DNA of 64,000 nucleotides, from positions 1,833,668-1,897,667 of the forward strand of contig CBDEUP010000007.1 of the NCBI GenBank assembly GCA_965243315.1. The letters run 5' to 3'. A program made the translations under genes and the position numbers. Positions 3,640 through 47,200 of this stretch are shown here, in pieces; within the stretch, counting starts at the first letter, position 1, and every line of letters starts with the position of its first letter. Under the pieces are notes generated by a model, which searched no databases, had not been told where the DNA came from, and saw only the letters and a program-made list of their open reading frames with translations. This DNA comes from Alphaproteobacteria bacterium (lineage in GTDB: Bacteria; Pseudomonadota; Alphaproteobacteria; UBA828).

Positions 3640-3702
3640 CCGGCCACCACGCGCCGGTATAAGATCGGGGCACTTGGATCGACAGCCGGGTCGTGAGAGG
3701 AC

Positions 3703-24931: not shown

Positions 24932-25858
24932 TCAGGCGCGGCAGACCGGGATGCCCATCTGCCGGGCGCGGTCCACGAGGTTCTCGGTGATGCCGCTGCC
25001 GGGGAACGCGATCACGCCCTTCGGCAGAAGGTTCAGCAGCTCCTCGTTGCGGCGGAACGGGGCGGCGCGTCCGTGGCGGTCCCAATCGGGCTTGCAGACG
25101 ACCTGGTGGACGCCGTTGCGTTCGGCCCAGCGCGCGGCGATCTTCTCGACGCCGGGACCGCCGCCGTGGACGAGCACCATGTCGGCGTGCTTGGCGCGGG
25201 TCCTGTCGAGCATGGCGATCACGGCGGCCGGGTCGGCGACGTCCTTGCCGCCGGCGATGGCGACGAGCGTTCCCTGCGGCAGATGCGCGGCGGTCTTGCG
25301 GTCCTGCCTCGCGCGGGCGAAATCGCGGGCGTCGATGCTGGCCGAGGTCAGCGTGCCGGTCTGCGATACATGCGATCCGCGCCTCGGACGCCAGACGTTG
25401 CCGGTCTCCGCGCGATACCGTTCGGCGGCCTGGTCGCGCATGGTCTCGAAGGCGTCGCGTCGGTCGGTGAGGCACTGCGCGCGATGGGTGGTCATCTCCA
25501 GTTCGAGGGACTTGATCTCGGTGCCGTCCTGGGCGCGCTGGAGGTCGCGCAGTTCGGGCATCAGCTTGTCGGCGGCGCGGTCGAGGCGGTTGGTCTGGCT
25601 GTCGAGCATGTTCACGAACCCCCAGAGCAGGCTCTCGCGCTCGTCGGCAAGCTGGGTTCCGTCCGGCGCGACGCCCTCGGCCAGGATGCGGAACGCTTCG
25701 CTCACCGCATCGATGGCGTCGTCGGCGTCCCAGATCTCGCGGGTATCGAACTCGTCGCGCTCGGGCGCCGCGCCGAACAGGGCGGCGTTGTCGCAGACGG
25801 TCGCGGTGACGGACTGCGCGCCCGCTTCGATGGTGTCGATGTTCTCGATGATGTTCAT
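24932..25858 (-). CDS. DUF2493 (SLOG/YspA-like Rossmann) domain protein with ~180 aa N-terminal extension; conserved ICE/plasmid leading-region gene
   Basis: C-terminal VLVHGGGPGVEKIAARWAERNGVHQVVCKPDWDRHGRAAPFRRNEELLNL...VIAFPGSGITENLVDRARQMGIPV matches the DUF2493 pattern (GGxxGxD..A..WA ... DW..G.aAp.RN ... aFpG.G T). Confidence 0.6.
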   Translation of the reverse strand: MNIIENIDTIEAGAQSVTATVCDNAALFGAAPERDEFDTREIWDADDAIDAVSEAFRILAEGVAPDGTQLADERESLLWGFVNMLDSQTNRLDRAADKLMPELRDLQRAQDGTEIKSLELEMTTHRAQCLTDRRDAFETMRDQAAERYRAETGNVWRPRRGSHVSQTGTLTSASIDARDFARARQDRKTAAHLPQGTLVAIAGGKDVADPAAVIAMLDRTRAKHADMVLVHGGGPGVEKIAARWAERNGVHQVVCKPDWDRHGRAAPFRRNEELLNLLPKGVIAFPGSGITENLVDRARQMGIPVCRA

Positions 25859-26089
25859 GTCGGTCTCCTATGCGATCGGTTGTTGCACGCTGGGGCCGAT
25901 CCCCGACGTGATTGTTCTTTGGGACATGTGCGCGCCGGAGCGGAGCGGAGGACCGGCGAAGCCGGTTGTCGCAGAGAGCACACATGGCACAATGAACGAT
26001 CACGTCTGGAGGCGAATATCTCTCCACCTGCACGGACCTCATGGGCGGTTCGGCTTGGCACGGCGGTCGAGGGGATGCACGATGTCGCG

Positions 26090-29963: not shown

Positions 29964-30265
29964 CGATGCACAGCCCGCCACGCGCCGCGCTCACCGCGGC
30001 GGAGCATTCCGCCTACGGACAGGGTTACGAGCGGATGCGCCGTAATGCCGTCGAGCCCGGCGCCGGCCACGACCGCCATGGGCTTGCCGTGGTGGCGCTT
30101 CGCGGCGTCGCGGCCTGGCTGCACGCATTCGCCGAGCTACCCGCCCCGCCGGCCGCTGAGTACGCGGGGGCCTCGCCCGAGCCGCTGCCCGCCGGCGTTG
30201 AAAGGCCGGTGATCGATGTTCTGCTCGCGATGCTCAAGGGCCATATGGAAGGGGAGCCGGCATGA
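29960..30265 (+). CDS. hypothetical protein, translationally coupled between the HTH protein and the serine recombinase
   Basis: 101 aa MTMHSPPRAALTAAEHSAYGQGYERMRRNAVEPGAGHDRHGLAVVALRGVAAWLHAF...; ATGA overlaps at both ends. Confidence 0.45.
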   Translation: MTMHSPPRAALTAAEHSAYGQGYERMRRNAVEPGAGHDRHGLAVVALRGVAAWLHAFAELPAPPAAEYAGASPEPLPAGVERPVIDVLLAMLKGHMEGEPA

Positions 30266-32340
30266 GCGCCGTCCACCAGAAGGTGACTGCGAGCCACCTG
30301 AGCCGCGACGCCTACCTCTATGTGCGTCAGTCCACCGTGCGCCAGGTGTTCGAGCACGGCGAGAGCACGAGACGCCAGTATGCGCTGCGGGAGCGGGCCG
30401 TGGCGCTGGGCTGGCCGACCGAGGGCGTCGTCGTGATCGACAGCGATCTCGGCCTCTCCGGCGCCGACGGCGACCGCGAGGGCTTTCAGCGGCTGGTCGC
30501 GGACGTCGGCATGGGACGGGCGGGGATCGTGCTCGGACTCGAGGTCAGTCGTCTCGCACGCAACTCCACCGACTGGCATCGGCTGCTCGAGATCTGCGCG
30601 CTGAGCGAGACGCTGATCCTCGACGAGGACGGCCTCTACGATCCCGTCGACTTCAACGATAGGCTCCTGCTGGGACTTAAAGGCACGATGAGCGAGGCCG
30701 AGCTGCACATGATGCGCGCCCGGATGCGCGGTGGGACGCTGAACGCGGCAAGACGCGGGGAGTTGAAGATTCCTCTGCCGGTGGGGCTGGTCTACGACCC
30801 GCTCGGCGATGTCGTTCTCGACCCCGACGTCCAGGTGCAGCACAGCCTGCGGCTGCTGTTCGACACCTTCACCCGGACCGGCTCGGCCGCCGCCACGGTG
30901 AAGCACTTCAACCGGGAGAAGCTGCTGTTCCCGCACCGTCCTCAAGGCGGGCCGCACAAGGGCGAGCTGCACTGGAAGCCGCTGAGGTTCGCACGGGCAC
31001 TCCGAACACTGCACAACCCGCGATACGCGGGCGCGTTCGCGTACGGGCGCAGCCGCAGCCGGCGGCGTCCCGGCGGCGGTGTCGAGACCAGAAGCGTGCC
31101 GCGCGAGGAGTGGACGGTGCTGCTGCGCGATGCCCATCCGGGCTACATCACCTGGGAGCGGTTCGAACAGAATGAGCGCCAGCTTCGCGACAACGATAAT
31201 GCCCATGCGGCCGCCGCCGCGCGCCGCCCTCCCCCGCGCGAGGGGCCGGCGCTGCTCCAGGGCCTGGCTATCTGCGGCGTGTGCGGCCGGAGCATGGCGG
31301 TGCGCTACTACAAGCAAAAGGGGGGTCTGCATCCCTACTACCTGTGCAGCCATGAAGGGAACAAGACGGCGAGCCCCTGGTGTCAGAGCATCCCCGGCGC
31401 CGCCATCGACCGGAGGGTCGGCGAGCTGCTGGTGGGGCTGATGACACCGCTCACGCTGGACGTGGCGTTGCAGGTGCAGGACGAACTCGCCGCGCGCGCC
31501 GAAGAGGCCGATCTGTGGCGCGCCCAGCGGGTGCAGCGCGCCCGCGAGGAAGCCGACCTGGCGCGCCAGCGGTTCATGCAGACCCATCCCGACAACCGCA
31601 TGGTGGCCGACGTGCTGGAGGCGGAGTGGAACGCGAAGCTCCGGGCGCTCGACGAGGCGCAGCACGAGCTTGAGCGCAGCCGGGCCGAACCGGGCCAGGG
31701 ATTGGACGACGGGCAACGCGAGCGGATCCTCGCGCTGGCCAGCGACTTCCCCCGCCTGTGGAACGATCCGGCGACGCCGCACCGCGAGCGCAAGCGGATG
31801 GCGCGGCTGCTCATCGAGGACGTGACGCTGACCAAGGCAACACGGAGCCTGGGGGTGCGGCTGCGCGGCGGCGCGACCCGGCAGATCACCTGGACGCCGG
31901 ATCCACTCGGGCGCGAGATGCACAAGACCAGCGAAGAAGTCGTCGCCGAGGTCGACAGGCTGTTGAACGACCACACCGATGGCGAGGTCGCCAAAATCCT
32001 CAACGAGCGCGGATACCGAAGCGGTTACGGCCTCGCCTTCACCCCGAAGCTGGTCAGCGTGGTGAGAGAGCGTTACGCCCTGAAGTCCCGCTATCAGCGG
32101 CTGCGCGATCGCGGACTGTTGCGCAGCGACGAGATCGCCAGGCAACTCGGGGTGGCCGGAAGCACCGTCCACAAATGGCGCAAGGCCGGGCTCTTGCGCG
32201 GTCACGTCTATTGCGACGCCGGCTACTGCCTGTTCGAAATCCCCGATCCTCCGCCGACGAAACAACCGGGGCAACGGCTCTCGCGGCGACAGCCGACAGA
32301 ACAACCTCGCCATGATTGGAACAGCGGAGGTGTAGTATGA
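30262..32340 (+). CDS. large serine recombinase (resolvase/invertase catalytic domain + recombinase domain + zinc-ribbon/coiled-coil)
   Basis: 692 aa; catalytic N-terminus AYLYVRQSTVRQ...STRRQ (Ser nucleophile region), GIVLGLEVSRLARNSTDWHRLLEICALSETLILDEDGLYD; downstream CGVCGRSMAVRYY...YYLCSHEGNKTASPWC zinc ribbon. Confidence 0.9.
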   Translation: MSAVHQKVTASHLSRDAYLYVRQSTVRQVFEHGESTRRQYALRERAVALGWPTEGVVVIDSDLGLSGADGDREGFQRLVADVGMGRAGIVLGLEVSRLARNSTDWHRLLEICALSETLILDEDGLYDPVDFNDRLLLGLKGTMSEAELHMMRARMRGGTLNAARRGELKIPLPVGLVYDPLGDVVLDPDVQVQHSLRLLFDTFTRTGSAAATVKHFNREKLLFPHRPQGGPHKGELHWKPLRFARALRTLHNPRYAGAFAYGRSRSRRRPGGGVETRSVPREEWTVLLRDAHPGYITWERFEQNERQLRDNDNAHAAAAARRPPPREGPALLQGLAICGVCGRSMAVRYYKQKGGLHPYYLCSHEGNKTASPWCQSIPGAAIDRRVGELLVGLMTPLTLDVALQVQDELAARAEEADLWRAQRVQRAREEADLARQRFMQTHPDNRMVADVLEAEWNAKLRALDEAQHELERSRAEPGQGLDDGQRERILALASDFPRLWNDPATPHRERKRMARLLIEDVTLTKATRSLGVRLRGGATRQITWTPDPLGREMHKTSEEVVAEVDRLLNDHTDGEVAKILNERGYRSGYGLAFTPKLVSVVRERYALKSRYQRLRDRGLLRSDEIARQLGVAGSTVHKWRKAGLLRGHVYCDAGYCLFEIPDPPPTKQPGQRLSRRQPTEQPRHDWNSGGVV

Positions 32341-32731: not shown

Positions 32732-33058
32732 TCAGCCCTTCTGCTTGCGGTCGCAGAGAATTCCGGCCGCGAGCGACCCCCACAATTGCAAGCCGCCGCG
32801 GGTCTTGAGGCCGGTGCAGATGATGATCTCGGTGGTGGCGGGCCGCAGCTCCTTCACCGCCTTCAGCGTGACCGTGGTGCGCTTGACCTTGCGTCGGCCC
32901 TTCGCCGCGAGAGCTTCGGCCGGGGCGGGAACGATGTCGCCGTCGGAACGGGCCTTGAACCGCTCGACCACATAGCGGTCGTCGGCCAGGCCGGTGCCGA
33001 AGAAATGAACCAGAAACGTCGCCGCCGTGTTGCCGGGCATCGCCATGGCTGCCGTCAT
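32732..33058 (-). CDS. small hypothetical protein
   Basis: 108 aa MTAAMAMPGNTAATFLVHFFGTGLADDRYVVERFKARSDGDIVPAPAEALAAKGRRKVKRTTVTLKAVKELRPATTEIIICTGLK...; SD GGAGA upstream. Confidence 0.35.
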   Translation of the reverse strand: MTAAMAMPGNTAATFLVHFFGTGLADDRYVVERFKARSDGDIVPAPAEALAAKGRRKVKRTTVTLKAVKELRPATTEIIICTGLKTRGGLQLWGSLAAGILCDRKQKG

Positions 33059-33625
33059 GATGCCGTCTCCTTCGTGCCGATGAGGGAAAACGGCGGCCGG
33101 ACATCCTCCCCCGGACATCCCGACCGCCGCCCCGATAACGGCCAACACTCCCCTCCTGCCGAAGAGAAGCGCGGGGTTGGAGACGGCGGCGGGACGGCGG
33201 CGCGGCAGCCGGGGGCCGTCAGCGCCGGCGGATGGCAACGCGATGTTATGCGCTGGCGGCTATATCAGCACGTCGCGGATGCAGCGGGTCATGGCGGCAT
33301 GATCGCCCGTATTGGACCGGCGCGAGGCGTCGAGCCAGGCGGCGCGCAAGTTCGGCGCGGAGACGGCGGAGCGGCTCGCCGCACTGCTCGGCGGCGGGGG
33401 CGTCGCGAGGACCGCCGGAGGGCCATACGCATACCGGCTGGCCCGAGCGGCGGACACGGACGCGTGCGTCGCGAAAAAAGCGTGCGCGAAAAAAGCGTCG
33501 CCATTGCCGCGCGAATGTGGTAGATGTATTGGAAAGTCCATGTGCGAAGGTAGCGGCGCTGCGCGCGCCTTGGGTTCGTCGGCGCTTTTGCCTTGCCCGT
33601 GTCGGGAGGTGCGGCGATGGACGGC

Positions 33626-33651
33626 GCTGAGCGTGCGCACGCTATTTGAGG
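33626..33651. repeat. transposon left terminal inverted repeat
   Basis: GCTGAGCGTGCGCACGCTATTTGAGG; 25/26 complementary to 38032-38056. Confidence 0.65.
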
Positions 33652-33774
33652 GGAATCCGCCGGATTCCGCTCAGATTATTTGATGTTTGGGGCTGGGCGC
33701 CCCCCAGCCAACTTGCAAGAAGCGGGCCAGGGGGCTTGTCTCGGTGACGGTGAATCAACCTGAGACCGGTCCGA

Positions 33775-34389
33775 ATGTCGCACACGCTCTTCGCCGATTC
33801 CAGCTTTTGCAACGCCCGGGTCTGGGCTTTCCTCGAACGCGTTGACGAGACCGAGGCTGCGGCCTGCCGCGCGGCGGGATGTTCGCTCTGCGGCGGCGGG
33901 CTTCACAGCGCGACCTACCCGCGCAAGCCGCACGGTCTGGCGCCCGAGCTGAGAGAGGACGCGCGGCGTTACAGCTTCTGCTGCGCTGATTGCAGGCGTC
34001 GCAAGACGCCGCCGTCGTGCCGCTTCTTCGGCCGCCGCTTCCGCGTGGCGCCGCTGTTCCTGCTGGTGAGCGTGCTGGTTCTGGCCGGCGGCGTGCGCCT
34101 GGAGACGGTCGGCCGGGAGTGGGGAATCCCGGTGCAGACGCTGCGGCGCTGGCGGCGGTGGTGGCAGGAGACATTCCCGCGAACGCGGCCGTGGCGCTGG
34201 AAGCGGGGCGAGCTGGCGGTGCCGCCCGACGAGGCGCCCCTGGTGGTTCTGCTGGCCTCGGTTCGCGGCCGTAGCGCGCGCTCGCGGCTGCTGCGGGGCC
34301 TGATCTGGCTGATGCCGTGGACGGGCTTTTGCACGCTCGGCGATGGTCCGGCGCCGTCCGCAGAAACTGTTTCTTCTCACGCCATGTGA
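33775..34389 (+). CDS. Cys-rich hypothetical protein (first gene inside the transposon)
   Basis: 204 aa; CNARVWAFLERVDETEAAACRAAGCSLCGGGLHS ... FCCADCRRRKTPPSC cysteine clusters then a hydrophobic segment. Confidence 0.4.
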   Translation: MSHTLFADSSFCNARVWAFLERVDETEAAACRAAGCSLCGGGLHSATYPRKPHGLAPELREDARRYSFCCADCRRRKTPPSCRFFGRRFRVAPLFLLVSVLVLAGGVRLETVGREWGIPVQTLRRWRRWWQETFPRTRPWRWKRGELAVPPDEAPLVVLLASVRGRSARSRLLRGLIWLMPWTGFCTLGDGPAPSAETVSSHAM

Positions 34390-34439
34390 GGCGTTCTACA
34401 TGGCGTCTCCCCGGACACCGGCCAGGGAGAGACGCCGTC

Positions 34440-35921
34440 ATGAGCAGCAGCAACGGCAAGGGCGACCGCGACGGGTGGGCGCGCTTGCGCTTCGCGGTGG
34501 TCGGGCCTCTTCTGGCCTCGCCGCCGCCCAAGGGGCGGCTGCGGGCGGAGTTGCAGCGGCTGGCGGAGCGTAGCTGGGAGCATCCCGCGGGCGGCGGCCA
34601 GGTGCGGTTCTCGGTATCCACGCTGGAACGCTGGTACTACCAGGCCCGGGCGGCGCATCGGGACCCGGTGAAGGCCCTGCGGCCACGGCCGCGCGGCGAC
34701 GTGGGACGCGTGCGGTCGATGTCGCCGGTGCTGATCGAGGCGCTGCTCGATCAGTACAAGGCCCATCCCTCGTGGTCGGGCCAGCTCCACTACGACAATC
34801 TGCAGGCCCGCGTCGAGGCCGAGCCCGCGCTCGGGCCGATGCCCTCCTACGCCACCCTGACCCGGGTGATGCGCGCCCGCGGGCTGGTGCGCCGGCGCCG
34901 GCGCAAGTGGTTCGAGAGAGAGGACAAGGCGCCGGCCGAGGCGCGCGAGGTGCTGAGCTACGAGGTCGAGCGCAGCCACGCTCTCTGGCACGCCGACATG
35001 CATCACGGCAAGCGCCGGGTGCTCACGGCCACCGGCGAATGGAAGACGCCGATCCTGCTCGGCTTCCTCGACGACCACTCGCGTCTGGGCTGCCACCTCC
35101 AGTGGTATCTTGCCGAGACCGCCGAGGTCTTCGTCCACGGAATCTGCCAGGCCTTCATGAAGCGGGGCCTGCCGAGGTCCCTGCTCACCGACAACGGTGC
35201 GCCGATGACGGCGGGCGAGGTCGAGGAGGGGCTGCACCGGCTCGGCATCCTTCATTCCAGGACCATGGCCGGGGCTCCCCACATGAACGGCAAGTGCGAG
35301 GTCTGGTGGGCCGCCGTCGAGGGCCGCCTGATGGCCATGCTCGACGGCGTCGAGGCGCTCACCCTTGAGAAGCTCAACGACGCCACCCTCGCCTGGCTCG
35401 AGCGCGACTACCACCGCCGGGTGCATCGCGAGCTCGGCACGACGCCGCTGAAGCGCTTCCTCGACAGCGACGACGCCTCCAGGCCCTGCCCGGAAACGGA
35501 CGTCCTCAGGGCGGCCTTCCGCATCACCGTGAAGCGCACGCTCAGGCGCTCGGACGGAACCGTCTCGGTCGAGGGCGTGCGCTACCAGGTGCCGGCGCCG
35601 TGGCGGCACCTGGCAACGCTGTTCATCCGCGTCGCGCGCTGGGACCTCTCCAGCGTCGACCTGGTCGACGGCCGCACCGGCGAGCGCCTGTGCACGCTCT
35701 ACCCGCTCGACAAGCGCGGCAATGCCGGCGGGGTGCGCCTTCCCAGCGGACCCGCCGACGGCGATCGCGGCGGGGGCGCCGCCGCCACGGAACTGGGACC
35801 GGCGCCGCTGCTCAACCGGATCCTCGACGACCAGGCCGCCTCCGGACTGCCGCCGCTCTGGCTGCCCCATGCCGAACCGCGCGACCGCGACAAGGACGAC
35901 GAACAGGGAGACCCGTCATGA
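34440..35921 (+). CDS. DDE transposase of the TniA/TnsB (retroviral-integrase rve) family
   Basis: ~493 aa from ATG 34440 (SD GGGAGAG); catalytic LWHADMHHG (D), LLTDNGAPM (D), HMNGKCEVWW (E) with integrase-like spacing; N-terminal HTH region. Confidence 0.8.
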   Translation: MSSSNGKGDRDGWARLRFAVVGPLLASPPPKGRLRAELQRLAERSWEHPAGGGQVRFSVSTLERWYYQARAAHRDPVKALRPRPRGDVGRVRSMSPVLIEALLDQYKAHPSWSGQLHYDNLQARVEAEPALGPMPSYATLTRVMRARGLVRRRRRKWFEREDKAPAEAREVLSYEVERSHALWHADMHHGKRRVLTATGEWKTPILLGFLDDHSRLGCHLQWYLAETAEVFVHGICQAFMKRGLPRSLLTDNGAPMTAGEVEEGLHRLGILHSRTMAGAPHMNGKCEVWWAAVEGRLMAMLDGVEALTLEKLNDATLAWLERDYHRRVHRELGTTPLKRFLDSDDASRPCPETDVLRAAFRITVKRTLRRSDGTVSVEGVRYQVPAPWRHLATLFIRVARWDLSSVDLVDGRTGERLCTLYPLDKRGNAGGVRLPSGPADGDRGGGAAATELGPAPLLNRILDDQAASGLPPLWLPHAEPRDRDKDDEQGDPS

Positions 35922-36754
35922 ACCGCCAGCACCTCACCCTCTACGGCCTCAAGTGGAATCCCTTCGCGACCGACCTGCCGGTCGAGGGTCTCATGACCAC
36001 TCCGGCCGTCGACAGCTTCTGCCTCAGGGTCGAACGCCACCTCGTGCGCGAGGGCGGCTTCGCCATGATCTCCGGCGATCCCGGCACCGGAAAGAGCGTC
36101 GCCCTGCGCCTGCTCGCCAAGCGCCTCGAACGCAACGACGCCGTGCACATCGCGGTCCTCACCCATCCGTCGTCCACCATCGGCGACTTCTACCGCGAGA
36201 TGGGCGACCTCTTCGGCATCGAGCTGATCCACAACAACCGCTGGATCGGCTTCAAGGGCCTGCGCGAGCGCTGGCGCGCCCACGTCGAGGACACCCGGCT
36301 GCGCCCGGTCCTGCTGATCGACGAGGCGCAGGAGGTGCTGCACGCCGTCCTGACCGAGCTGCGCCTGCTCGCCTCCACCGAGTTCGACTCCCGCGCCATC
36401 CTCTCGATCGTCCTGGCCGGCGACAACCGGCTCCTCGCCAAGCTGCGCAGCGAGGAGCTGCAGCCGATCGCCTCGCGCATCCGCCAGCGCCTCGTCATGT
36501 CGGCCGCCGAGCCCCGCGAGCTCGAGACGCTGCTCGACCATCTGCTCGAACAGGCCGGCAATCCGGCGCTGATGACGGCGGGCCTCAAGGACGCGCTCTG
36601 CGCCCACGCCGCGGGCAACCCCAGGTCGCTCTGCATCATGGCCGACAGCCTGCTCGTCGCCGCCGCCGAGCAGGACCGCGAGATCCTCGACGAAAAGCTC
36701 TTCATGGAGATCTGGGGCGAGCCCGTGCCGCGCGCCCAGGGGGCGCGGCGGTGA
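35918..36754 (+). CDS. TniB/TnsC-like AAA+ ATPase (ExeA-type)
   Basis: 278 aa; ATGA overlap with the transposase; Walker A ISGDPGTGKSVAL, Walker B VLLIDEAQEV, SIVLAGDNRLL. Confidence 0.75.
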   Translation: MNRQHLTLYGLKWNPFATDLPVEGLMTTPAVDSFCLRVERHLVREGGFAMISGDPGTGKSVALRLLAKRLERNDAVHIAVLTHPSSTIGDFYREMGDLFGIELIHNNRWIGFKGLRERWRAHVEDTRLRPVLLIDEAQEVLHAVLTELRLLASTEFDSRAILSIVLAGDNRLLAKLRSEELQPIASRIRQRLVMSAAEPRELETLLDHLLEQAGNPALMTAGLKDALCAHAAGNPRSLCIMADSLLVAAAEQDREILDEKLFMEIWGEPVPRAQGARR

Positions 36755-37740
36755 GCGGCTTCCCCACCCGCCACCCGGCGGCCCTGGAGGACCGGCCGCG
36801 GCAGCAGCACTGGCTGGTCGACGAGCTCTGGGCCAAGCAGGCGGTCGGCATCATCGGCGGCGAGCCCAAATGCGGCAAATCCTTCCTCGCTCTCGATGTG
36901 GCCGTCGCGGTCGCCGCCGGCGTCCCCTGCCTGCGCCACTTCGCGGCCGCCCAGACCGGCCGGGTCCTGATGTACGCCGCCGAGGACGCCGGCCACATCG
37001 TGCGCAGCCGTCTGGAGGGCATCGCCGGGGCCGCCGACACGCCCTTCGACAAGCTCGACATCGCCGTGATCGACGTCCCCACGCTGCGCCTCGACCATCG
37101 TGCCGACCGCCAGCGTCTCCAGGAGACCGTGCAACAGCTCAAGCCGCGCCTGGTGGTCCTCGACCCCCTGGTCCGCCTCCACGGCGTCGACGAGAACACC
37201 GTCGCCGAGATCGCTCCCATCCTCGGCTTCCTGCGCGACCTCCAGCGCCGGTTCGAGACCGCCGTGCTGCTCGTCCACCACGCTCGCAAGAGCGGCGCTA
37301 CGCGGCCGGGCCAGGCCCTGCGCGGGAGCAGTGAGCTGCACGCCTGGGGAGACTCCAACCTCTACCTGCGCCGCCGCGACAAGCAGATCGTCATGACCGT
37401 CGAGCACCGCGCCGCTCCCGGCCTCAACGACATCGAGATCGAGCTCGCCGATGACGGTCCGGGACCCGCCCTGCGCCTCCGGCGGGCGGTGCCGAACCAG
37501 GCCCCGCCAAAGCCGGAAACCCCCGAACAGCGCATCGTGCAGGCCCTCGCGGACGCCGATGAGCCGCTCTCCCAGTCCCAGATCCGGGAACGGGCCGCAG
37601 CCCGCAACTCAACCGTCACCGCGGCGCTGCACGAGCTCGTGCGCGAAGGACGTATCGAGCGCGGTCCGGGAGGTCGCTACCGCTACCTTGGCGGCGTGTC
37701 GAATGACGCCGCCATGCAGACCGCCAGCGCCAACGGCTAG
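36753..37740 (+). CDS. AAA_25/RepA-like (DnaB-fold) ATPase with C-terminal winged helix
   Basis: ~329 aa (GTG start overlapping tniB stop); WLVDELWAKQAVGIIGGEPKCGKSFLALDVAVAVAAG (Walker A), LVVLDPLVRLHG, LLVHHARKSG; C-terminal IVQALADADEPLSQSQIRERAAARNSTVTAALHELVREGRI wHTH. Confidence 0.6.
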
Positions 37741-38031
37741 GCGAAGCACGACGCGTTCCCGGTCCCGTTCCGGCCAACCCTTAAGGGTTCGAGGGAACGG
37801 GAACGGGAACGGCGGCGCCTATCCCCCATCGCAACCCTGCGTCAAGCAGTCGGCCCATGGCCGAAAGCTTGCCTTACGGCCATGGCAGCACTTCGTCGCG
37901 TGGACGGCAGCGGGTCACCCGAAGGGCCGTAGCGAAGCGAAGGAGCCGCGCAGCGGCTTGACGCGCTGACGGCCTCGCGACACCCCACCGGCGCGAGCTT
38001 CAGAGTCCATCAAATAGCGTGATCGGAGCGT

Positions 38032-38056
38032 CCTCAAATAGCGTGCGCACGCTCAG
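38032..38056. repeat. transposon right terminal inverted repeat
   Basis: CCTCAAATAGCGTGCGCACGCTCAG. Confidence 0.65.
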
Positions 38057-38121
38057 GCGCGAACATCGCGGGCCGTGGGGCCGGGCCTGACAGGCGCGGC
38101 GAAATAATCCGTGCAAGGGGG

Positions 38122-38153
38122 TTGACAAACCCCGAAGCGGCTCTCGTTACAAT
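38122..38153 (+). promoter_or_regulatory. sigma70-like promoter (TTGACA - 20 nt - TACAAT) immediately upstream of the pentanucleotide tract and the giant gene
   Basis: Consensus -35 hexamer at 38122-38127 and TACAAT at 38148-38153; spacer is longer than optimal. Lies 65 nt beyond the transposon right IR. Confidence 0.35.
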
Positions 38154-38156
38154 CTT

Positions 38157-38260
38157 GCCGAGCCGAGCCGAGCCGAGCCGAGCCGAGCCGAGCCGAGCCG
38201 AGCCGAGCCGAGCCGAGCCGAGCCGAGCCGAGCCGAGCCGAGCCGAGCCGAGCCGAGCCG
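38157..38260. repeat. perfect pentanucleotide simple-sequence repeat (AGCCG)x~21
   Basis: 104 nt of uninterrupted GCCGAGCCGAG...; produces the artefactual PSRAE/LGSAR peptide repeats in the ORF track on both strands. Confidence 0.95.
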
Positions 38261-38286
38261 CTTCGCCTTGCGTCCGCGCACCGGCC

Positions 38287-41200
38287 ATGAGCGCGCCGTC
38301 GGGGCGGCGGCTGTTGCCCTGGCGTCCCCTACGCCGCGGGGCGTCCCCGCCTGAGTCTTCCGCCGCCGGGCACGCCGCGTCCCGCCCGGCCCGCACCTCC
38401 TCCGAACGCTCCGCCTCTTCCTCCTCCCCCGCCCGGCGTGGCCCGCGCCGTGTGTGGCGCGGCCTGCTTGCGGCGCTGCTCGCCCTGCCGCTCGCCGCCG
38501 GCCTTGCCGCCGGGGCGCAGGCGCAGTCGACGGTGAGCTTCGCGCAGTCGAGCTACGTTGTAGACGAGGGCGAGGACGCAACGCTGACGCTGCAGCTCTC
38601 GCCCGCCCGCACGGTGGCGACGGAGGTCCGGGTGACGTTTGTGGACCTGACCACATCGCCCAAAGACTACGACGAAAGTGCGCAGACGGTGACCATCCCG
38701 GCGAACGCGACGAGCGCGACGGTGACGGTCGGGACCGAGGACGACCAGTTCATAGAAATCAAAGAGTCAGCCCGGGCCCATATCGATTCGGGCTCCCTGC
38801 CCTCCGGGGTGACGGTGGGCACGCAGGGGACTACAGACATCGTCATCACCGACAACGCGGTGCCCGCCCTGGTGTTCACGCCGAAGGCGCTGACGGTGGC
38901 CGAGGGCGGCTCGGCGAGCTACGAGGTGGCGCTGTCGCACCGGCCCCATCACGCAAGCGCCTCAATCACGGTGGCCATCTCCGGGCAGGCGGACACGGAC
39001 CTGACGCTGGACAAGACGAGCCTGACCTTCGGGCACTCGAACTGGAACCAGGCGCAGACCGTGACGGTGAGCGCGGCCGCGGACACCGACCGGACCGACG
39101 ATGCCGCGACGCTCGACCACGCCGCGTCGAGCGGAGTCTCCAAATTCAACGGAGTCACCGGCAGCCTCGCGGTAACGGTGCAGGAGAACCTGCCGGTCAT
39201 CGGCGTCTCCGCGGCGACGAGCGATTTCACCGAGGGCGACGCCTCGAAGGTGGCCTTCTCCGTCACCGCCTCGGGCGGGGAGACCGGCGACTACCCGGTG
39301 TCGGTGACGTTTGGGACGAGCGGCGCGGCGACCCAGGGTACCGACTACACCCTCCCGGCCTCGGTGACCTTGTCGGCCGACGGCGCCTCGGTGGCGGTCC
39401 CGATACTCGTCGCCGACGACGACACCGTGGAGGGCGAGGAGACCGCGGCCATCACGATACCGGCGGGCTCGGGCTACCGCCCGGACAAGGATGCCGCCAC
39501 CCACACCATGACCATCGCGGACAACGACCACTCGATTAGCTATCGGGTCCGGGGCACGCCTGTGGAGGGCAGCACGAGTACCGTGATTGGCCGGGGCAAT
39601 GGAATCATCAATTTCCAGCAACCCACCCCGCAGTTGGCGTCGGGCGAGACGATGACGATACCGCTGTCGTTCGCAGACGGCACCCTGGGCACGGACTTCA
39701 CGCTGGCGGTGGGGGATCACGACTTTGCCTCGGCGTCGGTGGACGCCACGACGGGGGTGGTGAGTGTCACGGGTCCGACGAGCAGTGCCGCCACCTTCGT
39801 TGTGCTGCTCCTTGCCAGCGAGGACACGGACACGACCGACGACACGGTGACGGTGAGCGTGGGCAGCGGCGCGACGGCGGGCGGCGGCGCCCTGGTCGCC
39901 ACCCGCCGGGGCAATGGACAGTTGACGATGCTGGACAACGACGTGTCCCAGAGCCTGACCGTGGAGTTCACCCAGTCCGGGTTCAGCGTGAACGAGGACC
40001 GGACGGTGCAGCCGGTGGCGCGCCTGTCCGAGACGGCGCGCACCGACATCGACATCCCGGTGACGGTGACCTCCGGCACGGCGACGCGCGGGGTGGACTT
40101 CGAGAGCGCCGCCGCGCGCACGCTGACCGTGTTCGCGGGCGGAACGACCGGCACCGTCTCCATCCCCATGATTGACGACGACCTGACGGAGGGCGACGAG
40201 ACCTTCACGATTGCCATCGACACCGCCTCGCTGCCGACCGGGGTGACGGCGAAGCCGGGGGGCCACCTCCAGGCGACGGTGACCATCCTCGACAACGACG
40301 AGACGCCGACGCTGTCCATCGCCGCCCCTGCGGACGCCGACGAGGGCGATGGGCTCGCGTCCACGCGGCTGTTCACCGTGGGGCTCACCCGGGCGGTGGC
40401 GGGCGCGGTGCGCTACGAGGTGTGCTTCTCGGGCACGGCGAAGTCCGCCGCTGACGCGCACCGCTCGCAGGAGCTGGTCGACTACCGGGTGCAGCGCGAC
40501 GGCGCGGGGGTGGCGGCCGAGTGCCTCGAGGACCTCACGCTCGCTGCGGGCGCGACCGCCTCGGGGCAGGCCGTCGGCATCAAGGTCCTGGGCGACACCT
40601 TCGCCGAGCCCGACGAGACGGTGGTGGCGACGCTCGAGATGAAGGCCGCGCCCGACGGCGTGCTGCTCGGCACCTCGGTCGCGACCCACGTCATCGGCAA
40701 CGACGACGGGACGGAGGCGACGCTCACGCTTGCGCCCGCGCCGGGCGCGGTGACGGCGCTCGTCGAGGGCGACGCGCCGGCGCACTTCGTCATCGACGGC
40801 ACGGGTGCCACGCCGGGCGCGGAGTACTACGTCCAGCTCGCGCTCGGCGGCGAGGCGAAGAACGGGACGGACTACCGGCTCGAGATACGCATCGACGGGC
40901 AGTGGCACCAGTTGAGCCGCAATCTGCGGCGCAGCATCTTCTCCGTGTTCGAGCTGCCGACGCGGCTTCGCCTCTTCGCGCTTGCCGACACGGCGCCCGA
41001 GGGCGACGAGCGCGCGGTGCTCACCCTTGCCGACGCGCAGGGCTACGCGCCCGGCACGCCGTCGGAGGTGACCTTCGTCATCGGCAACGGGCCGCCGGCG
41101 GTGACCGTCGAGGCGGTCGAGGCGGCGGTGACCGAGGGGGCGCCGGCGCGCTTCACGGTGCGCTTGAGCGAGGCGCAGGTCGCGGACTTCGACGTGGCGG

Positions 41201-44200
41201 TGCGCATCGCCGAGGACGGGGACGGCGACTTCGTGGCCGGGGACGACGAGGGGGTGCAGAGCTTCACCGTCCCCGCGGGCGAGACCGAGGCGGTGCTCGA
41301 GGTCGCGACCGACGACGACACGACGCACGAGCCCGGCACGGCGGTCACGGCGACGGTGGAGCCGGGCGCGGGCTACACGGTGGGCACCCCCGCCTCGGCC
41401 GCGGTCGCGGTGGCCGACGACGGGGACCTCGAGCTGTCGCACGGCATATTCCCGGCAACGGCGGGCGAGGGCAGCACGCTCGGGGCCGCACGGTTCTACC
41501 TGCGCCCGCAACGGGCGCTCGCCGCGGGCGAGACGGTGACGGTCCCGCTCGCGTTCACCGGCGGGACCCTCGGCACGGACTTCACGCTCGCGCTCGATGC
41601 CGCCTCCGCCCAAGCGTTCGGGTCGGCGTCGCTCGCCGCGGGCACGGTGACGCTCACCGGTCCGGCGGATAGGGGCAGATTGCTGAACGTGAACCTCTTC
41701 GCCGCCGAGGACGACGACGCCGACGACGAGGTGGTGACGCTCGGCTTCGGGGCGATGTCGACGAGCGCCGGGGGCGACGTCGGGCTCATGCGGTTCACCA
41801 GCGACCGGATAAAGCTGCTCGACAACGACGTCCCGCAGTCGCTCACCGTCGAGTTCACCCGCGATGCGCTCACCATCTTCGAGGACATCGGTCTCCTCGA
41901 GCCGATACTGCGGCTCTCGGAGGTGGCGCGCCGGGACGTCGCGGTCAAGGTGACGCTCACCGACGGCACGGCGGTGCGCGGGGCGGACTACGAGAGCGCG
42001 GCCACGCGCACCGTGACCTTCCCGGCGGGCAAGGAGGTCTCGGGCCTCCAGGTGAAAATCCTCATAGACAACGAGGTGGAGGGCGACGAGACCTTCATGG
42101 TGGCCATCGACACGGACTCGCTGCCGGCGGGGGTGACCGCGAAGCCGGGCGGCAATGCCGAGGCGACGGTTACCATCCTCAACGACGACACGACGGCGTC
42201 GTTCGCCGCGGCCGCCTCGAGCGCGAGCGAGGGCGCGGGCGCCCACACCGTGACGGTGAACTTCACGCCGCCGGCGGCGTCATTTACCTCCCTCCGCTAC
42301 ACCGTGGGTGGCACGGCGAGGGCGGGCGAGGACTTCACCATCGCGGGCTCGGGCAGCCTCTCGGTGCCCATCGACGCGACGAGCGTCGACATCGAGGTCG
42401 CGGTGGTCGACGACGCCGTGCCCGAGTACGCGGAGACGGTCGTGCTCACCCTGACCGACGGCGGCAGACGCATCGCCCTCGGCGCCACCACCGTCCACAT
42501 CCTCACCATCGCCGACGACGACGCGGGCACGCCGCCGAACCCGGTGCGCCTCTCGGTCTCGGACGCCGGCGCGGTGGCCGAGGGCGGGACGGTCACGGTG
42601 ACCGCGACCCTCGACCACGCCAACGCCACGGGCGGCGCGCTCGCGATACCGCTTGCGGTGCGCGCCGCCGGCACCACCGCGGCGCCCGGCGACTACACGG
42701 TGGCGTCGAGCATCGCCATCGCCGACGGCGCCACCGCCGGCACGACGGACCTCGCCGCGACCGACGACGACGCGGTCGAGGCGCCGGAGACGGTGGTGCT
42801 CGCGCTCGGCGCGGCGCTCCCCGAAGGGGTCGCCGCGGGCACGCCCGGCCACGTGACGGTCACCATCGCCGACGACGACCTGGGGCTCACCTACGGCGTT
42901 CGCGATTGGAGCGCCACGGAGGGCGAGCCGACGAGCCACGCGCGGCTCTTCGTGCGGCCGCAGTGGGCGCTCGGCGCGGGCGAGACGCTGACCGTCCCGC
43001 TCACCTTCACCGGCGGAACCTTGGGCACGGACTTCACGCTCGCCCTCGAGGCGGCCTCCGCGGCAAGGTTCGCCGCGGCGACGCTTGCCGCGGGCACGGT
43101 GACGCTCACCGGCCCGGCGCGGGCGGACGCCGCCGTGTACGTCCGCCTCTTCGCCGCCGAGGACGACGACGCCGGCGACGAGACGGTGACGCTCGGCGTC
43201 GGGACGGTGGCGTCGAGCACCGGCGCCGCGGTCGCCGCGAGCCGGCAGGGCGACGGGCGGATGACGCTGCTCGACAACGACGGCGACCTCGAGCTGCGCT
43301 ATGGCGTTTTGCCTGCCACCGCCGCGGAGGGCAGCACCACCGCCCTCCGGCAGCTCTGGCTGACGCCGCGACGGGCGCTCGCCGCGGGCGAGGCGGTGAC
43401 GGTGCCGCTCGTGTTCGAGGGCGGGACGCTCGGTACGGACTTCACGCTCGCGCCCGGTGTCCACGGGTTCGGCTCGATGGTGCTCGCCGCGGGCACGCTG
43501 ACGCTCACCGGTCCGGCGAATCGGGGCGCCACCGGGTTCGTGAACCTCTTCGCCCTCGAGGACGACGACGCCGACGACGAGGTGGTGACGCTCGGCTTCG
43601 GAGCGGCCTCGTCGAGCACCGGCGCCGCGGTCACGCACACCCGGTTCGGCGACGGGCGCATCACGCTGCTCGACAACGACGCCCCGCAGTCGCTCACCGT
43701 CGAGTTCGCCAGCGATGCGTTCGGCGTCTACGAGCACAACGGTCCCGCCGAGCCGGTGCTGCGGCTCTCGGAGGTGCCGCGCCGCGACGTCGCGGTGCGG
43801 GTGACGGTGACCTCCGGCACGGCGGTGCGCGGGGAGGATTTCCTGAGCGCGGCCACGCGCACCGCGACCTTCCCGGCGGGGGGCGCCACGACCACGAACG
43901 TCCCGATGACCCTCCCCAACGACGCCCTGGTGGAGGGCGACGAGACCTTCACGGTGGCCATCGACACGGCCTCGCTGCCGGCGAACGTGACGGCGAAGCC
44001 GGGCGGCAACGTCCGGGCGACGGTCACCCTCTTCGACGACGACACCGCGACGGTGGGGTTCGCGCGCGGCGCGCTCGCGGTGCGCGAGGGCGATGCGGCG
44101 CGCCCGGTGCTGGTGCTCTCCAAGGCGTTCGCCGCCGATGTCACGGTCGGCGTCGAGGACGCCGCGGGCACCGCCACCGCGCCCGGCGACTACGCGGCCG

Positions 44201-47200
44201 GTCCGTACTCGGTGACCTTCCCCGCGGGCGCCAAACGCGCGGCGTTCGACGTGGCGACGGTCGCGGATTCCACCGCCGAGGGCGCGGAGACGTTCTCGCT
44301 GCGGATACCGGCCGCGGGCCTCCCGGCGGGGATGGGCCTTGCCGCGGCGGGCGCCGCCACCCCGCCCGAGGCGACCGTCACCGTCTCCGAGAGCGCGCCG
44401 CCGAGCGTGCCCGAGGCGGCGTTCGCCGCGGGCGAATCGGACGCGGGCGAGGCCGCGGGCACCCGCACCGTGACGGTGCACCTCGTACCGCCGCCGACCT
44501 CGCCGCTCGCGCTCGCCTACACCGTGGGCGGCACCGCGACGGCGGGCGCGGACTTCACCATCGCGGGCTCTGGCATCGTCGCGGTGCCCGCGCACGCGAC
44601 CGGCGTCGACATCGAGGTGGCGGTGCTCGACGACACCGCGCAGGAGTCCGACGAGACGCTCGTCCTGACGCTCGCCGCCGGCGCGGGCTACACGGTGGGC
44701 GCCCCGGGCGTGCACACGCTCACCCTTGCCGACGACGACGCGCCGCCGCCCGCGCCCGTGGTCTCGGTCGCGGGCACGCCGGGCGCCGAGGGCGGCGCGC
44801 CGGCGCGCTTCCTCCTCACCGCGCGCCCGCGGCCCGCGGGCAGCGTCGCGGTGACGGTCGCGGTGACGCAGAGCGGCGGCTATGCCGGCCCGGGCGAGAC
44901 CGGCACGCGCACCGTGACGATGGACGCGTCGGGCTCGGCGCTGCTCGACGTCGCGATTGCCGACGACGCCATCGACGAGCCGGACGGCAGCTTCACCGCG
45001 ACGGTGCGCCCCGGCACGGGCTACGCGGTGCACGCAAGCGCTGCCGCCGCCACCGTGGCGGTGGCCGACGACGACCCGACCCGGGTGACGCTTGCGGGCT
45101 CCGCGGACGCAATCCCCGAGACCGGGGGGACGAAGACGCTGACGGTGCGCCTCGCCCGGGCGCTGGTCGCACCGGAGACGCTCGCGGTGCCGCTCGTGTT
45201 CGCAGGCGAGGCGGTGCGGGGCCTCGACTACACGCTGAGCTGCGGCAACGACACCGGCGCGGCCTGCCGCGACCTTGCGGGCGAGGCGCCGCGCATCGAG
45301 TTCAGCGCCGGCGGGCGCACCGCGACGGTGACGCTCGCCGCCGCCGGCGACGCCATCAACGAGGGCGCGGGCGAGACGGTGACGGTGGCGCTCGGTGCGC
45401 TCGACGCGAGCTCGGGCACCGGCCTCGGCGGGGGTGCGGCGGGCGCAGGCAGCGTCGCGTTCACCATTACCGACGACGACGCGGGCCCGGAGCCGGGTAT
45501 TGTGCTGCCCGATACGGACGTGGCCGTGGTCGAGGGCGCGACGGCGAGCTACGAGCTCAAGCTCGCCTCCGACCCCGGCGACGGCGCCACGGTGCGGGTG
45601 AGCGTCACCTCCGCGGACACCGGCGCGGTGACGGTGAGCGACACCCAGTCGGGTGTGAACGGCACGCAGGACTGGCTCGACTTCACCGGCGGCGCCGCCG
45701 GCACCTGGAGCACCGCCCAGACGGTGACCGTCGCCGGCGTGCACGACGCCGACTCCGCCCACGAGGCGGACGTGGCGCTCGCCCACGCCGCGAGCGTGCA
45801 GGCGGGCACGAGCGCGCCCTATGCGGGGCTTGCGAGCCGGACGCTCCACGTCGACGTGACCGAGGACGACGCGGCCGAGGTCGGCTTCAAGCAGGACGCC
45901 CACGCGGTGGACGAGGGCGACGACGCGACGCTCACGCTCACGTTCACGCGCGCGCTAGGGAGCGACGTGACCGTGCGGGTCCTGCTGACCGGTCTCGGGG
46001 CGACCGGCTCGGGCGTCGACTTCGACTCGACCCCGCGCTCGATTGCCGTCCCGGCGGGGACGGTGGAGCAGGCGTTCACCGTCTCGACCGTCGAGGACGA
46101 GAAGTTCGAGGGCTACGAGACCTTCCAGGCGACGATTCTCGCCCTCGGCCTCCCCGACGACCTGGCGCTCGCCGCCGCGCACCGCTCGACCGTCACCATC
46201 GTCGACGACGAGGCCTCGGTCTCGCCCGCGCTCGACGCCGGCATCCACGAGGGCGAGACGCTGACCTACACCGTCTCGGGAATCGACCCCGCGCATGCGA
46301 GCGTGACGCTCCTGGCCGCCACCTCGAGCACCGCGACCCGCGACGTCGACGGGACGTGGGACGCGGGCGAGGACTACCGCCTGCTTCGCCCCGGCGACCC
46401 CGAGGACACGGTGCTCGGCGCGACCGACACCCTCACCCCCTCGGGCGGGGCGGTGACGTTCCGCATCAAGACGCGCGCCGACACCGACGACACCGAGGGC
46501 GACGAGACGGTGGTGTTCGAGATGGAGCTTCCGGGTGTCTTGGGGGAGGCGGCGCTCGGGACGCTGGCGCTGAAGAACGGCCCGCGCCTCGAGGCTGGGG
46601 TCGCGCTCTCCGCGCAAACCCTCGCCCTCGACGAGGGGACGACCGGCACCTACACCGTGGCGCTCACCCTCGCGCCCGCCCCGGGCGAGACGGTGACCGT
46701 CACCGCGGCGAGCCCCGATGCGGGCGCGGTGCGGGTGCACGCCGCCGGCGGCTCCCCGGGGGCGCGCGCGACGCTGACCTTCACCGACGCGACCTGGAGC
46801 GCCGCGCAGACGGTGACGGTGACCGCGCTCTCCGACTTCGATGCGAGCGACGAGCGCGTCGACATCGCGCACGCGGTCGAGGGCACGGGCGCGTACGCGG
46901 ACGTGACCGCGCCGGCGGTGGCGGTCACGGTGGACGACGACGAGGTGCCCGTCGTGGTCTCGGTCGCCGCGGGCGCGGCGGTGGATGAGGGCGGGGCCGC
47001 GACCTTCACGGTGACGGCGACGCCTGCGCCGCCCCGCACGCTTCGCATCGCGCTCGCGCTCGGCGAGACCGGCGCGTTCCTCGCCCCGGGCGCCACGCTG
47101 CCTGCGGTGCACCTCAGCCCCACCCGGGCGTCGCAGAGCGTCTCGCTCGCGACCGAGGACGACACGGTCAACGAGGCGCACGGCGCGGTGACGCTCACCG

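Follow-up and report, generated by a model that had tools for sequence, protein, structure and literature searches.

Transposons in which a DDE transposase works with an AAA+ ATPase, namely Mu, Tn7, Tn5053 and IS21, serve as the models for target capture and for CRISPR-guided insertion tools, and to our knowledge none of them regularly encodes a helicase of the RecA/DnaB fold. The closest described relative of the element considered here is a different one, Tn6049, a 3.5-kb transposon carrying a 'gspA' ATPase and present in 12 copies in Cupriavidus metallidurans CH34 (PMC2864759), with published ends of 12-bp inverted repeats and 4-bp direct repeats (PMC4739549); it also occurs on the Pseudomonas aeruginosa plasmid pHS87a. 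Tn6049 has only been catalogued in these two papers, and no mechanistic study of it was found. Here we describe a 4,428-bp transposon in a 64,000-nucleotide stretch (contig CBDEUP010000007.1, positions 1,833,668 to 1,897,667, forward strand) of an alphaproteobacterium of the UBA828 lineage; this whole stretch is called the window below, and positions are those of the window. The element is a Tn6049-family transposon with a cassette encoding a predicted helicase fused to a winged helix-turn-helix (wHTH), and it is part of a large undescribed three-component set, widespread among environmental bacteria, in which a DDE transposase and an AAA_22 ATPase are accompanied by this AAA_25-wHTH protein. 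The helicase-wHTH gene is conserved, under selection and translationally coupled, and occurs in lineages whose transposases are less than 30% identical. The best overall explanation, which we hold with moderate confidence, is that of a Tn6049-family transposon bringing its own helicase for the replication that accompanies transposition.

The element extends from 33628 to 38055 between TG...CA termini (Table 1), and is an intact transposon making simple insertions at non-specific sites. A repeat search of the window finds a long inverted repeat (33614-33651 / 38032-38069) bracketing the region, within which base-by-base reading gives a perfect part of 24 bp. A preliminary description, made from the letters of the window, had spoken of perfect terminal repeats of 25/26 bp; the inverted repeats do bound a single unit, but the 26-bp version needs one indel. 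It had also reported that no 5-bp target-site duplication was evident, and had suggested rearrangement after insertion. With the ends set at the TG and the CA, both flanks read GGCGC, a perfect 5-bp target duplication whose chance of arising by coincidence is about 0.002 at the local base composition, and which makes a rearrangement unnecessary. The duplication had been missed because the ends then used, 33626 and 38056, took in 2 bp and 1 bp of flank, so that ACGGC was compared with GCGCG. The multiple sub-terminal repeats reported at the same time are borne out: the exact 12-mer TCAAATAGCGTG occurs at 38010-38021 and 38034-38045 on the plus strand and at 33638-33649 on the minus strand, and a degenerate fourth copy lies at 33672-33685, making two sub-terminal sites per end, their distances from the tip differing by some 10 bp between left and right. 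Promoter and terminator scans of the element gave no match.

Only one copy of the element lies in the window, and sibling copies elsewhere were used to define the conserved ends, as had been proposed. A genome scan with the AAA_25 protein found 76 loci, from which three sets were examined, together 62 copies in two metagenome-assembled genomes (MAGs). Set A1 comprises 31 copies of 4,421 bp in MAG CBDEUT01 (loci L008-L038, termini TGAG...CTCA), set A2 12 copies of 4,425 bp in MAG CBDBLP01 (L042-L053, likewise TGAG...CTCA) and set B 19 copies of 4,380 bp, again in CBDEUT01 (L054-L074, termini TGTTGT...ACAACA). Copies are 99.7-100% identical within each set; across the full length of the window element, A1 and A2 share about 80% identity with it, the A2 similarity beginning at element base 1. 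All 62 lose similarity at the same TG/CA termini, which supports the boundaries independently. Direct repeats of 5 bp flank 33 of the siblings, those of 4 bp another 23, of 6 bp two and of 3 bp one, while three have none; 58 of the 62 therefore carry duplications of 4-6 bp, and two of the three repeat-less copies still match at four of five positions. The target sequences are unrelated to each other and GC-rich like their genomes, and with 62 insertions at unrelated sites insertion is not site-specific. The transposon at 33628-38055 is probably mobile. Copy numbers of 30-50 per genome are reached in some uncultured Alphaproteobacteria; in CBDEUT01 alone, two unrelated helicase-bearing transposons together reach at least 50 near-identical copies (A1 at least 31, B at least 19), and four more copies with a 204/491/277/342-aa layout are found in a 4.7-Mb ENA contig.

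Comparison with known systems places the element nearest to Tn6049. In a blastn search against PLSDB, only the DDE/AAA_22 part finds matches (66% nucleotide identity), mainly in C. metallidurans, where the matching unit is annotated as a 181-aa 'transposase', a 479-aa 'IS481 family transposase', a 277-aa AAA ATPase and a 71-aa open reading frame (ORF). Tn6049 was located at L077:2724-6240. Relative to the pMOL30 and pBPHYT01 copies of Tn6049, the window element shows amino-acid identities of 40-42% for ORF1, 51% for the DDE transposase and 52% for the AAA_22 ATPase, encoded in the same order, which sets it nearer to Tn6049 than to either Tn402 or Tn7. Judged by these first three predicted products, the window element belongs to the Tn6049 family, and we regard its identity as a transposon of that family as very probable. 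Short TG...CA inverted repeats, a duplication of 4-5 bp, multiple copies and non-specific insertion are further points of likeness (PMC2864759, PMC4739549). Tn6049 is a DDE/AAA_22 transposon without the AAA_25 gene: it carries its 71-aa ORF within 3.5 kb, whereas the window element has instead a 329-aa AAA_25-wHTH protein, a palindrome and a structured motif, and the termini differ as well (TGTGC in Tn6049, TGAGC here). The 71-aa ORF was considered as a relative of the AAA_25 C-terminus and shows no similarity to it.

The label of a Tn402/Tn7-like transposon, under which the element had been presented, is only loosely right. The rve DDE transposase and ATPase core, the 5-bp duplication, the several sub-terminal transposase-site repeats arranged asymmetrically between the ends, and the matches to phage-transposition families in PHROG are all shared with the group of Tn7, Tn5053 (Tn402), Tn552 and Mu A-B. 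Yet the nearest named relative is Tn6049, and there is no match to TnsA, TniB, TniQ or a resolvase; also absent by comparison with that group are TnsD, TnsE and a res site, while the duplications range from 4 to 6 bp, insertion lacks site specificity and an extra RecA-fold ATPase is present. The insertion into res sites that marks Tn5053 (Tn402) is not seen, the targets being unrelated. The IS481/IS3 elements resemble the window element in their TG...CA ends and variable short duplications, and transpos_IS481 is the best NCBIfam match of its transposase; they differ in that this transposase falls below the model cutoff and has about 150 extra C-terminal residues, and that three further genes are present.

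The four genes of the element (ORF1, DDE transposase, AAA_22 ATPase and AAA_25-wHTH) lie in one orientation on the plus strand, and the last three overlap by 4 bp, with ATGA at the transposase/AAA_22 junction and GTGA at the AAA_22/AAA_25 junction. Purifying selection acts on all four. ORF1 is the Cys-rich 204-aa protein that the preliminary description had noticed ahead of the transposase gene; throughout the Tn6049 family it is conserved as the first gene, with a putative four-Cys ribbon and a transposase-type helix-turn-helix (HTH). The pairs C36-x2-C39 and C69/C70-x2-C73 are invariant in 39 homologues, a pattern that suggests a zinc ribbon, and transposase-type HTH matches are found in 36 of those 39, with a weak HTH_23 match in Pfam for the window protein itself. 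Small DNA-binding proteins of several insertion sequences have a similar layout, and ORF1 probably binds the ends or has a regulatory function. The idea that it might be a divergent TniQ finds no sequence support, as there is no Pfam match to TniQ among the 39 homologues at E<=1 and a profile search of the PDB with ORF1 gave no relevant match; the AlphaFold model (pLDDT 52) is too poor for fold comparison, and a Foldseek search against the PDB gave no usable match.

The DDE transposase is related to the Mu-, IS481- and IS21-type enzymes. In Pfam it scores 30.4 bits for rve against a cutoff of 32.6, together with a match to HTH_32, and its HTH and core match transpos_IS481 in NCBIfam at 1e-33 over the full model length (117 bits against a cutoff of 224). 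The window protein has no PF09299 match, but across the PF09299 region it is 27% identical to the type-B transposase, which passes that model; Mu-transposase C-terminal domains are found in the type-B and type-C homologues. In PHROG the transposase matches phrog_310 (transposase, 5.8e-33) and the AAA_22 protein matches phrog_296 ('DNA transposition protein', 2e-20). The AAA_22 ATPase, with 72.7 bits in Pfam and an ExeA-like ATPase as its best, below-cutoff NCBIfam match, is the kind that partners such transposases, like MuB, TnsC/TniB or IstB. A conventional transposase with a TniB/TnsC-like ATPase had been proposed; a DDE transposase with an AAA+ partner is indeed present, but the ATPase matches the AAA_22 and ExeA-like models, and the TniB model (PF05621) gives no match to it at E<=0.01. 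The reported absence of TniQ/TnsD and of a resolvase holds: Pfam finds neither TniQ/TnsD nor TnsA in any of the four ORFs, and no resolvase between the inverted repeats.

Gene 4 encodes a predicted RepA/DnaB-type (AAA_25) helicase-like ATPase fused to a winged helix. The AAA_25 match in Pfam reaches 126.4 bits against a cutoff of 27, and the winged helix is matched by the IclR, GntR and MarR families. The best sequence match in the PDB is the RSF1010 RepA helicase (1g8y, 1.7e-7); the Foldseek order for the model is DnaB first, then RadA helicase, KaiC and Rad51; and the PHROG matches are to primase-helicase and DnaB-like helicase families. Walker A residues G42, K43 and S44, Walker B D138 and the HHxRK signature (H176 H177 x R179 K180) are invariant in 38 homologues. 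The fold and these motifs (Walker A, Walker B, HHxRK) are shared with RepA of RSF1010 (IncQ) and with the DnaB family, while the window protein differs from RSF1010 RepA and from phage and plasmid primase-helicases in being fused to a wHTH, in having no RepB primase or RepC initiator beside it and in lying within a transposon operon. In the AlphaFold model the winged helix (258-312) is confident. The gene is under purifying selection as strong as or stronger than that on the transposase, with dN/dS (the ratio of nonsynonymous to synonymous divergence) of 0.25-0.32 for AAA_25, 0.32-0.42 for DDE and 0.41-0.49 for AAA_22. A role as defence cargo was considered, and the PADLOC defence models gave no match to the AAA_25 protein.

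This gene is by no means confined to the window and its siblings. A phmmer search against 1.84 billion cluster representatives returned, at E<=1e-30, about 500 clusters defined by 50% identity, many of them with full-length members of 310-350 aa that are 38-52% identical to the window protein. All homologues that could be placed in a genomic context directly follow an AAA_22 gene, and the full array is present wherever upstream sequence is available. At L182 (41% identity) a DDE transposase with Mu-transpos_C_2 is followed by AAA_22 and then, with a 4-bp overlap, by AAA_25; DDE/AAA_22/AAA_25 arrays are likewise found for P0299 (40%, L205-L207), P0338 (38%, L208) and P0273 (44%, L209-L210). For P0393 (38%) the contig edge truncates the upstream gene, which overlaps the start of AAA_25 by 4 bp, so that the context is uninformative. 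Start/stop overlaps of 4 bp occur in the window, in type B, in L182 and in L205-L207. In several deeply divergent lineages, DDE/AAA_22 transposons regularly have AAA_25 as their third partner, and a literature search for an AAA_25 helicase in DDE/AAA+ transposons found nothing relevant. At L205-L207 a fifth small gene of 82 aa overlaps the AAA_25 stop by 4 bp, which recalls the terminal 71-aa ORF of Tn6049.

In the transposition pathway that we propose, the transposase would bind the paired sub-terminal repeats and join the 3' ends to target DNA with a stagger of 4-5 bp, while the AAA_22 ATPase would present the target DNA, as MuB, TnsC and IstB do. Since a 5'-end nuclease of the TnsA kind is lacking, the element would have to be copied: the 5' ends would remain uncut, and copying might follow either the Mu-type copy-in route or the IS3/IS481-type copy-out route. 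At this step the AAA_25-wHTH protein would supply a replicative-type helicase, positioned by its winged helix, and the element would then be independent of the host restart primosome. This role of AAA_25 as a helicase in the replication step, argued from protein families, is put forward tentatively, and with somewhat less assurance than the overall explanation.

The preliminary description had assigned the AAA_25 protein, on the ground of its gene position only, to the place of a missing target selector, and had suggested either an alternative target selection or a replication-coupled mechanism. As a selector, the protein would recognise a fork, gap, D-loop or sequence and recruit AAA_22, as TniQ/TnsD or TnsE do with TnsC. 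The position after the AAA+ regulator and the translational coupling to it would suit such a role, as would the DNA-binding winged helix and the fact that RecA-fold proteins such as RadA, which is among the Foldseek matches, bind branched DNA. The insertions speak otherwise, for the 62 sites have no common sequence, and TnsE-type targeting gives a near-absolute orientation bias. Orientation relative to flank GC skew, which is a low-power proxy, is 33:29 in the 62 copies (14:17, 7:5 and 12:7 in the three sets), not significantly biased, and a TnsE-like orientation bias was rejected on this count. We know of no target selector with a RecA/DnaB fold, and consider a selector role unlikely; a replication-coupled role fits the evidence better.

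The AAA_25 gene has passed between transposon lineages. Type B and the window element have in common only element positions 3112-4362 (window 36739-37989; L054:7986-9246), at 78% nucleotide identity, a shared cassette made up of the AAA_25 gene and about 250 bp downstream, with a 3' edge that coincides with the end of the structured motif. Outside it, the transposases are 27% and the AAA_22 proteins 27-29% identical, and ORF1 of type B has no detectable homology to window-type ORF1 (hhalign probability 0.9%); by eye, a short H-x-x-Y-x-RK-x-P signature after the first metal-binding pair is common to the ORF1 of types A and B. The AAA_25 proteins of type A are 70-84% identical to that of the window and those of type B 70-80%, and the synonymous divergence (dS) of the gene is 0.45-0.50 between the window and type B and 0.41-0.45 between the window and A1/A2, while dS of DDE and AAA_22 is saturated. 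Equal AAA_25 dS across the lineages indicates that the gene was exchanged as a cassette and is not merely slow-evolving. The two transposon lineages that share the cassette co-reside in one MAG (CBDEUT01), where some copies are nested in each other or in other elements (L041, L062, L074).

Such exchange between lineages is the one observation that would favour the view that AAA_25 is part of another, adjacent element and that the inverted repeats do not delimit one unit, an outcome that the preliminary description had named as telling against its own account. The probability of this is negligible, and the sibling copies contradict it. The gene lies inside the element ends in every copy: the window element and each of the 62 siblings examined have it between TG...CA termini flanked by the matched duplications, as had been claimed for the window, and its start overlaps the AAA_22 stop.

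The non-coding end of the cassette contains two features. Just after the AAA_25 stop lies the palindrome; in subfamilies A1 and A2 its two arms both have the hexamer GGTAAC/GTTACC. Its function may be that of an operator, an iteron-like site bound by the winged helix or a terminator hairpin. Beyond it lies the structured motif of about 137 nt, far better conserved across subfamilies than its surroundings and with a nearly invariant core, GTCACCCGAAGGGCCGnAGCGnAGCGnAGGAGCCGCGnAGCGGCTTGAC. In the structure drawn by hand, its four-way junction is closed by GUCA/UGAC. Over 19 sequences, 95.8% of the cells are paired and 15 pairs show compensatory change, while slid controls reach 23-48% and none of 500 shuffles attains the observed value. 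Among 85 distinct covariance-model matches, 35 of 44 pairs are compensatory and 94.9% of cells are paired, though this alignment is model-fitted and favours structure. Cells with G-U/U-G outnumber those with A-C/C-A (84 vs 25), an excess that places the fold on the plus strand. Hairpins with C-G-closed GNA triloops, including GCGAAGC, are very stable DNA mini-hairpins; a function in single-stranded DNA, for instance as a signal for priming or loading, has the same likelihood as one in RNA. The motif was also considered as a general loading site for AAA_25, and was rejected as such because the lineages at L205-L210 have none. In type A, L001 (4206-4277) has lost the motif core, and L007 and L039 have no motif, with the AAA_25 gene intact in all three; as the motif is absent in distant AAA_25 lineages and its core is lost in L001, it is not essential to the helicase.

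These features allow for the alternative that AAA_25, the hexamer palindrome and the motif form a replication or maintenance module for an excised circle, or a selfish passenger cassette outside the transposition machinery. The cassette at 36739-37989 keeps about 78% nucleotide identity between lineages with 27%-identical transposases, its dS of 0.45-0.50 equals that of close relatives, and an integrase-bearing element also has the motif, after a RecD2-like helicase gene and beside a gene for a single-stranded DNA-binding protein (SSB). Some known helicases bind nearby iterons through a C-terminal winged helix: the phage P4 alpha protein, for example, combines an SF3 helicase and a primase domain with a C-terminal winged-helix origin-binding domain that has short repeated sites near its gene. 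The window AAA_25 protein shares with it the layout of helicase followed by winged helix and the short repeated sites near the gene, but has no sequence relationship to it. Such a module would nevertheless have to do without an initiator or primase gene. The position of AAA_25 and its coupling to AAA_22 are kept in lineages at 38-44% identity that have no motif, and no relatives are found in PLSDB plasmids (tblastn, 1e-10) or in IMG/VR, a result on which a plasmid or phage origin of AAA_25 was rejected too. We consider the module improbable.

Less probable again is a regulatory function for the AAA_25-wHTH protein, which would act on the downstream palindrome as an ATP-dependent repressor or immunity factor and limit transposition. 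The winged helix does resemble those of the IclR, GntR and MarR transcription regulators, and a palindrome of repeated hexamers adjoins the gene; but that palindrome lies downstream of the operon and not at its promoter, the strictly conserved helicase motifs would be unnecessary for a repressor, and 30-50 copies per genome do not suggest tight self-limitation. This possibility appears very slight.

Several observations weigh against a helicase acting in the replication step of transposition, even so. The element encodes no primase or polymerase. Tn6049, which has homologous core genes and no AAA_25, still reached 12 copies in CH34 (PMC2864759), so that a helicase is not indispensable for this type of transposase. 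Almost every copy is a simple insertion flanked by a matched duplication, which argues against unresolved Mu-type intramolecular replication as the usual event; copy-out in the manner of IS3/IS481, or resolved intermolecular events, would fit better. The palindrome and motif are absent in distant AAA_25 lineages, and therefore provide no general loading site, and the ATPase core of the AAA_25 AlphaFold model is poor (overall pLDDT 57).

A wider proposal, which we offer as speculation and regard as doubtful, is that DDE, AAA_22 and AAA_25-wHTH make up a large undescribed three-component class with its own replicative-type helicase and synthesis independent of the host primosome; in the window element the cassette-borne helicase would be combined with a palindromic hexamer array and a four-way-junction element, possibly a new single-strand initiation or loading signal. 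If the helicase does drive replication of the element, it would show an escape from dependence on host replication restart, and the whole would be a compact, non-site-specific and self-sufficient copy-and-paste system.

Table 1. Features of the transposon and its flanks, in window positions
Feature	Position	Strand	Basis or remark
Target duplication, left copy, GGCGC	33623..33627		Read directly; same as 38056-38060
Left terminal inverted repeat, 24 bp perfect, TGAGCGTGCGCACGCTATTTGAGG	33628..33651	+	Complement at 38032-38055; sibling alignments begin at its TG
Putative transposase-binding repeat L1, CACGCTATTTGAGG	33638-33651		Within left terminal inverted repeat
Degenerate sub-terminal repeat L2, CAGATTATTTGATG	33672..33685	-	Read directly; 10/14 positions match CATCAAATAGCGTG
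ORF1, 204 aa, Zn-ribbon/HTH (predicted)	33775..34389	+	Pfam, homologue alignment
DDE (rve) transposase, 493 aa	34440..35921	+	N-terminal HTH; D..D-35-E core (WHADM / TDNG / GKCEVW)
AAA_22 ATPase, 278 aa, MuB- or ExeA-like ('gspA')	35918..36754	+	Walker A GDPGTGKS, Walker B LLIDEAQ
AAA_25 (RepA/DnaB-fold) ATPase with C-terminal winged helix, 329 aa (predicted)	36751..37740	+	GTGA start overlaps AAA_22 stop
Palindrome, 58 bp	37754..37811		Perfect centre, three GGGAAC-type hexamers per arm; just after AAA_25 stop
Structured motif, about 137 nt	37850..37986	+	Hairpin, long-range stem, four-way junction, three C-GNA-G-capped hairpins
Sub-terminal repeat R2, CATCAAATAGCGTG	38008..38021	+	
Right terminal inverted repeat, 24 bp, ending ...CGCTCA	38032..38055	-	Holds repeat R1 (38032-38045)
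Target duplication, right copy, GGCGC	38056..38060		Read directly

The structured motif is a widespread, strongly covarying element without an Rfam family, and makes a separate lead. Rfam 15 gave no match to it at E<=1 in window 33000-38600 and only chance miRNA-type hairpin matches in 14 other motif loci, and a literature search with the motif core returned only unrelated primers. When metagenomes were scanned with 22 nt of this core, at least 120 contigs (L084-L203) were found, about 14 of them with transposon genes among the matches listed; elsewhere the motif lies between ordinary genes, in either orientation, and clustering of the flanking ORFs at 120 loci yielded no conserved protein neighbour beyond the transposon genes. 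A subtype of the motif is found at L160:6366-6501 and L038:10070-10205 (-), just downstream of a RecD2-like SF1 helicase gene; at L160 it is also upstream of the SSB gene, with a tyrosine recombinase gene on the same contig. Together with the transposon, the RecD2-like locus makes two cases in which the motif follows a helicase gene in a mobile element. In the window itself, a divergent second copy lies outside the transposon at 25860-25993 (+) (covariance model 47.9 bits, E 3e-6), adjoining the start of a minus-strand ORF (24932-25858); its third hairpin, ACCGGC-GAA-GCCGGU, is compensatory relative to AGCCGC-GNA-GCGGCU.

The surroundings of the element have some features of their own. A large serine recombinase of 692 aa (Resolvase, Recombinase and Zn_ribbon_recom domains) is encoded at 30262-32340 (+), 1.3 kb upstream of the left end and outside the inverted repeats, and suggests that the transposon lies in or beside another mobile element. 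On the other side, 100 bp past the right end, a perfect pentanucleotide microsatellite, (GCCGA) x 20.8, occupies 38157-38260; it falls within the 5' part, or the leader upstream, of an ORF of 3,810 aa (38122-49554) that contains long internal repeats. As the repeat unit is not a multiple of three, a change in copy number could switch expression.

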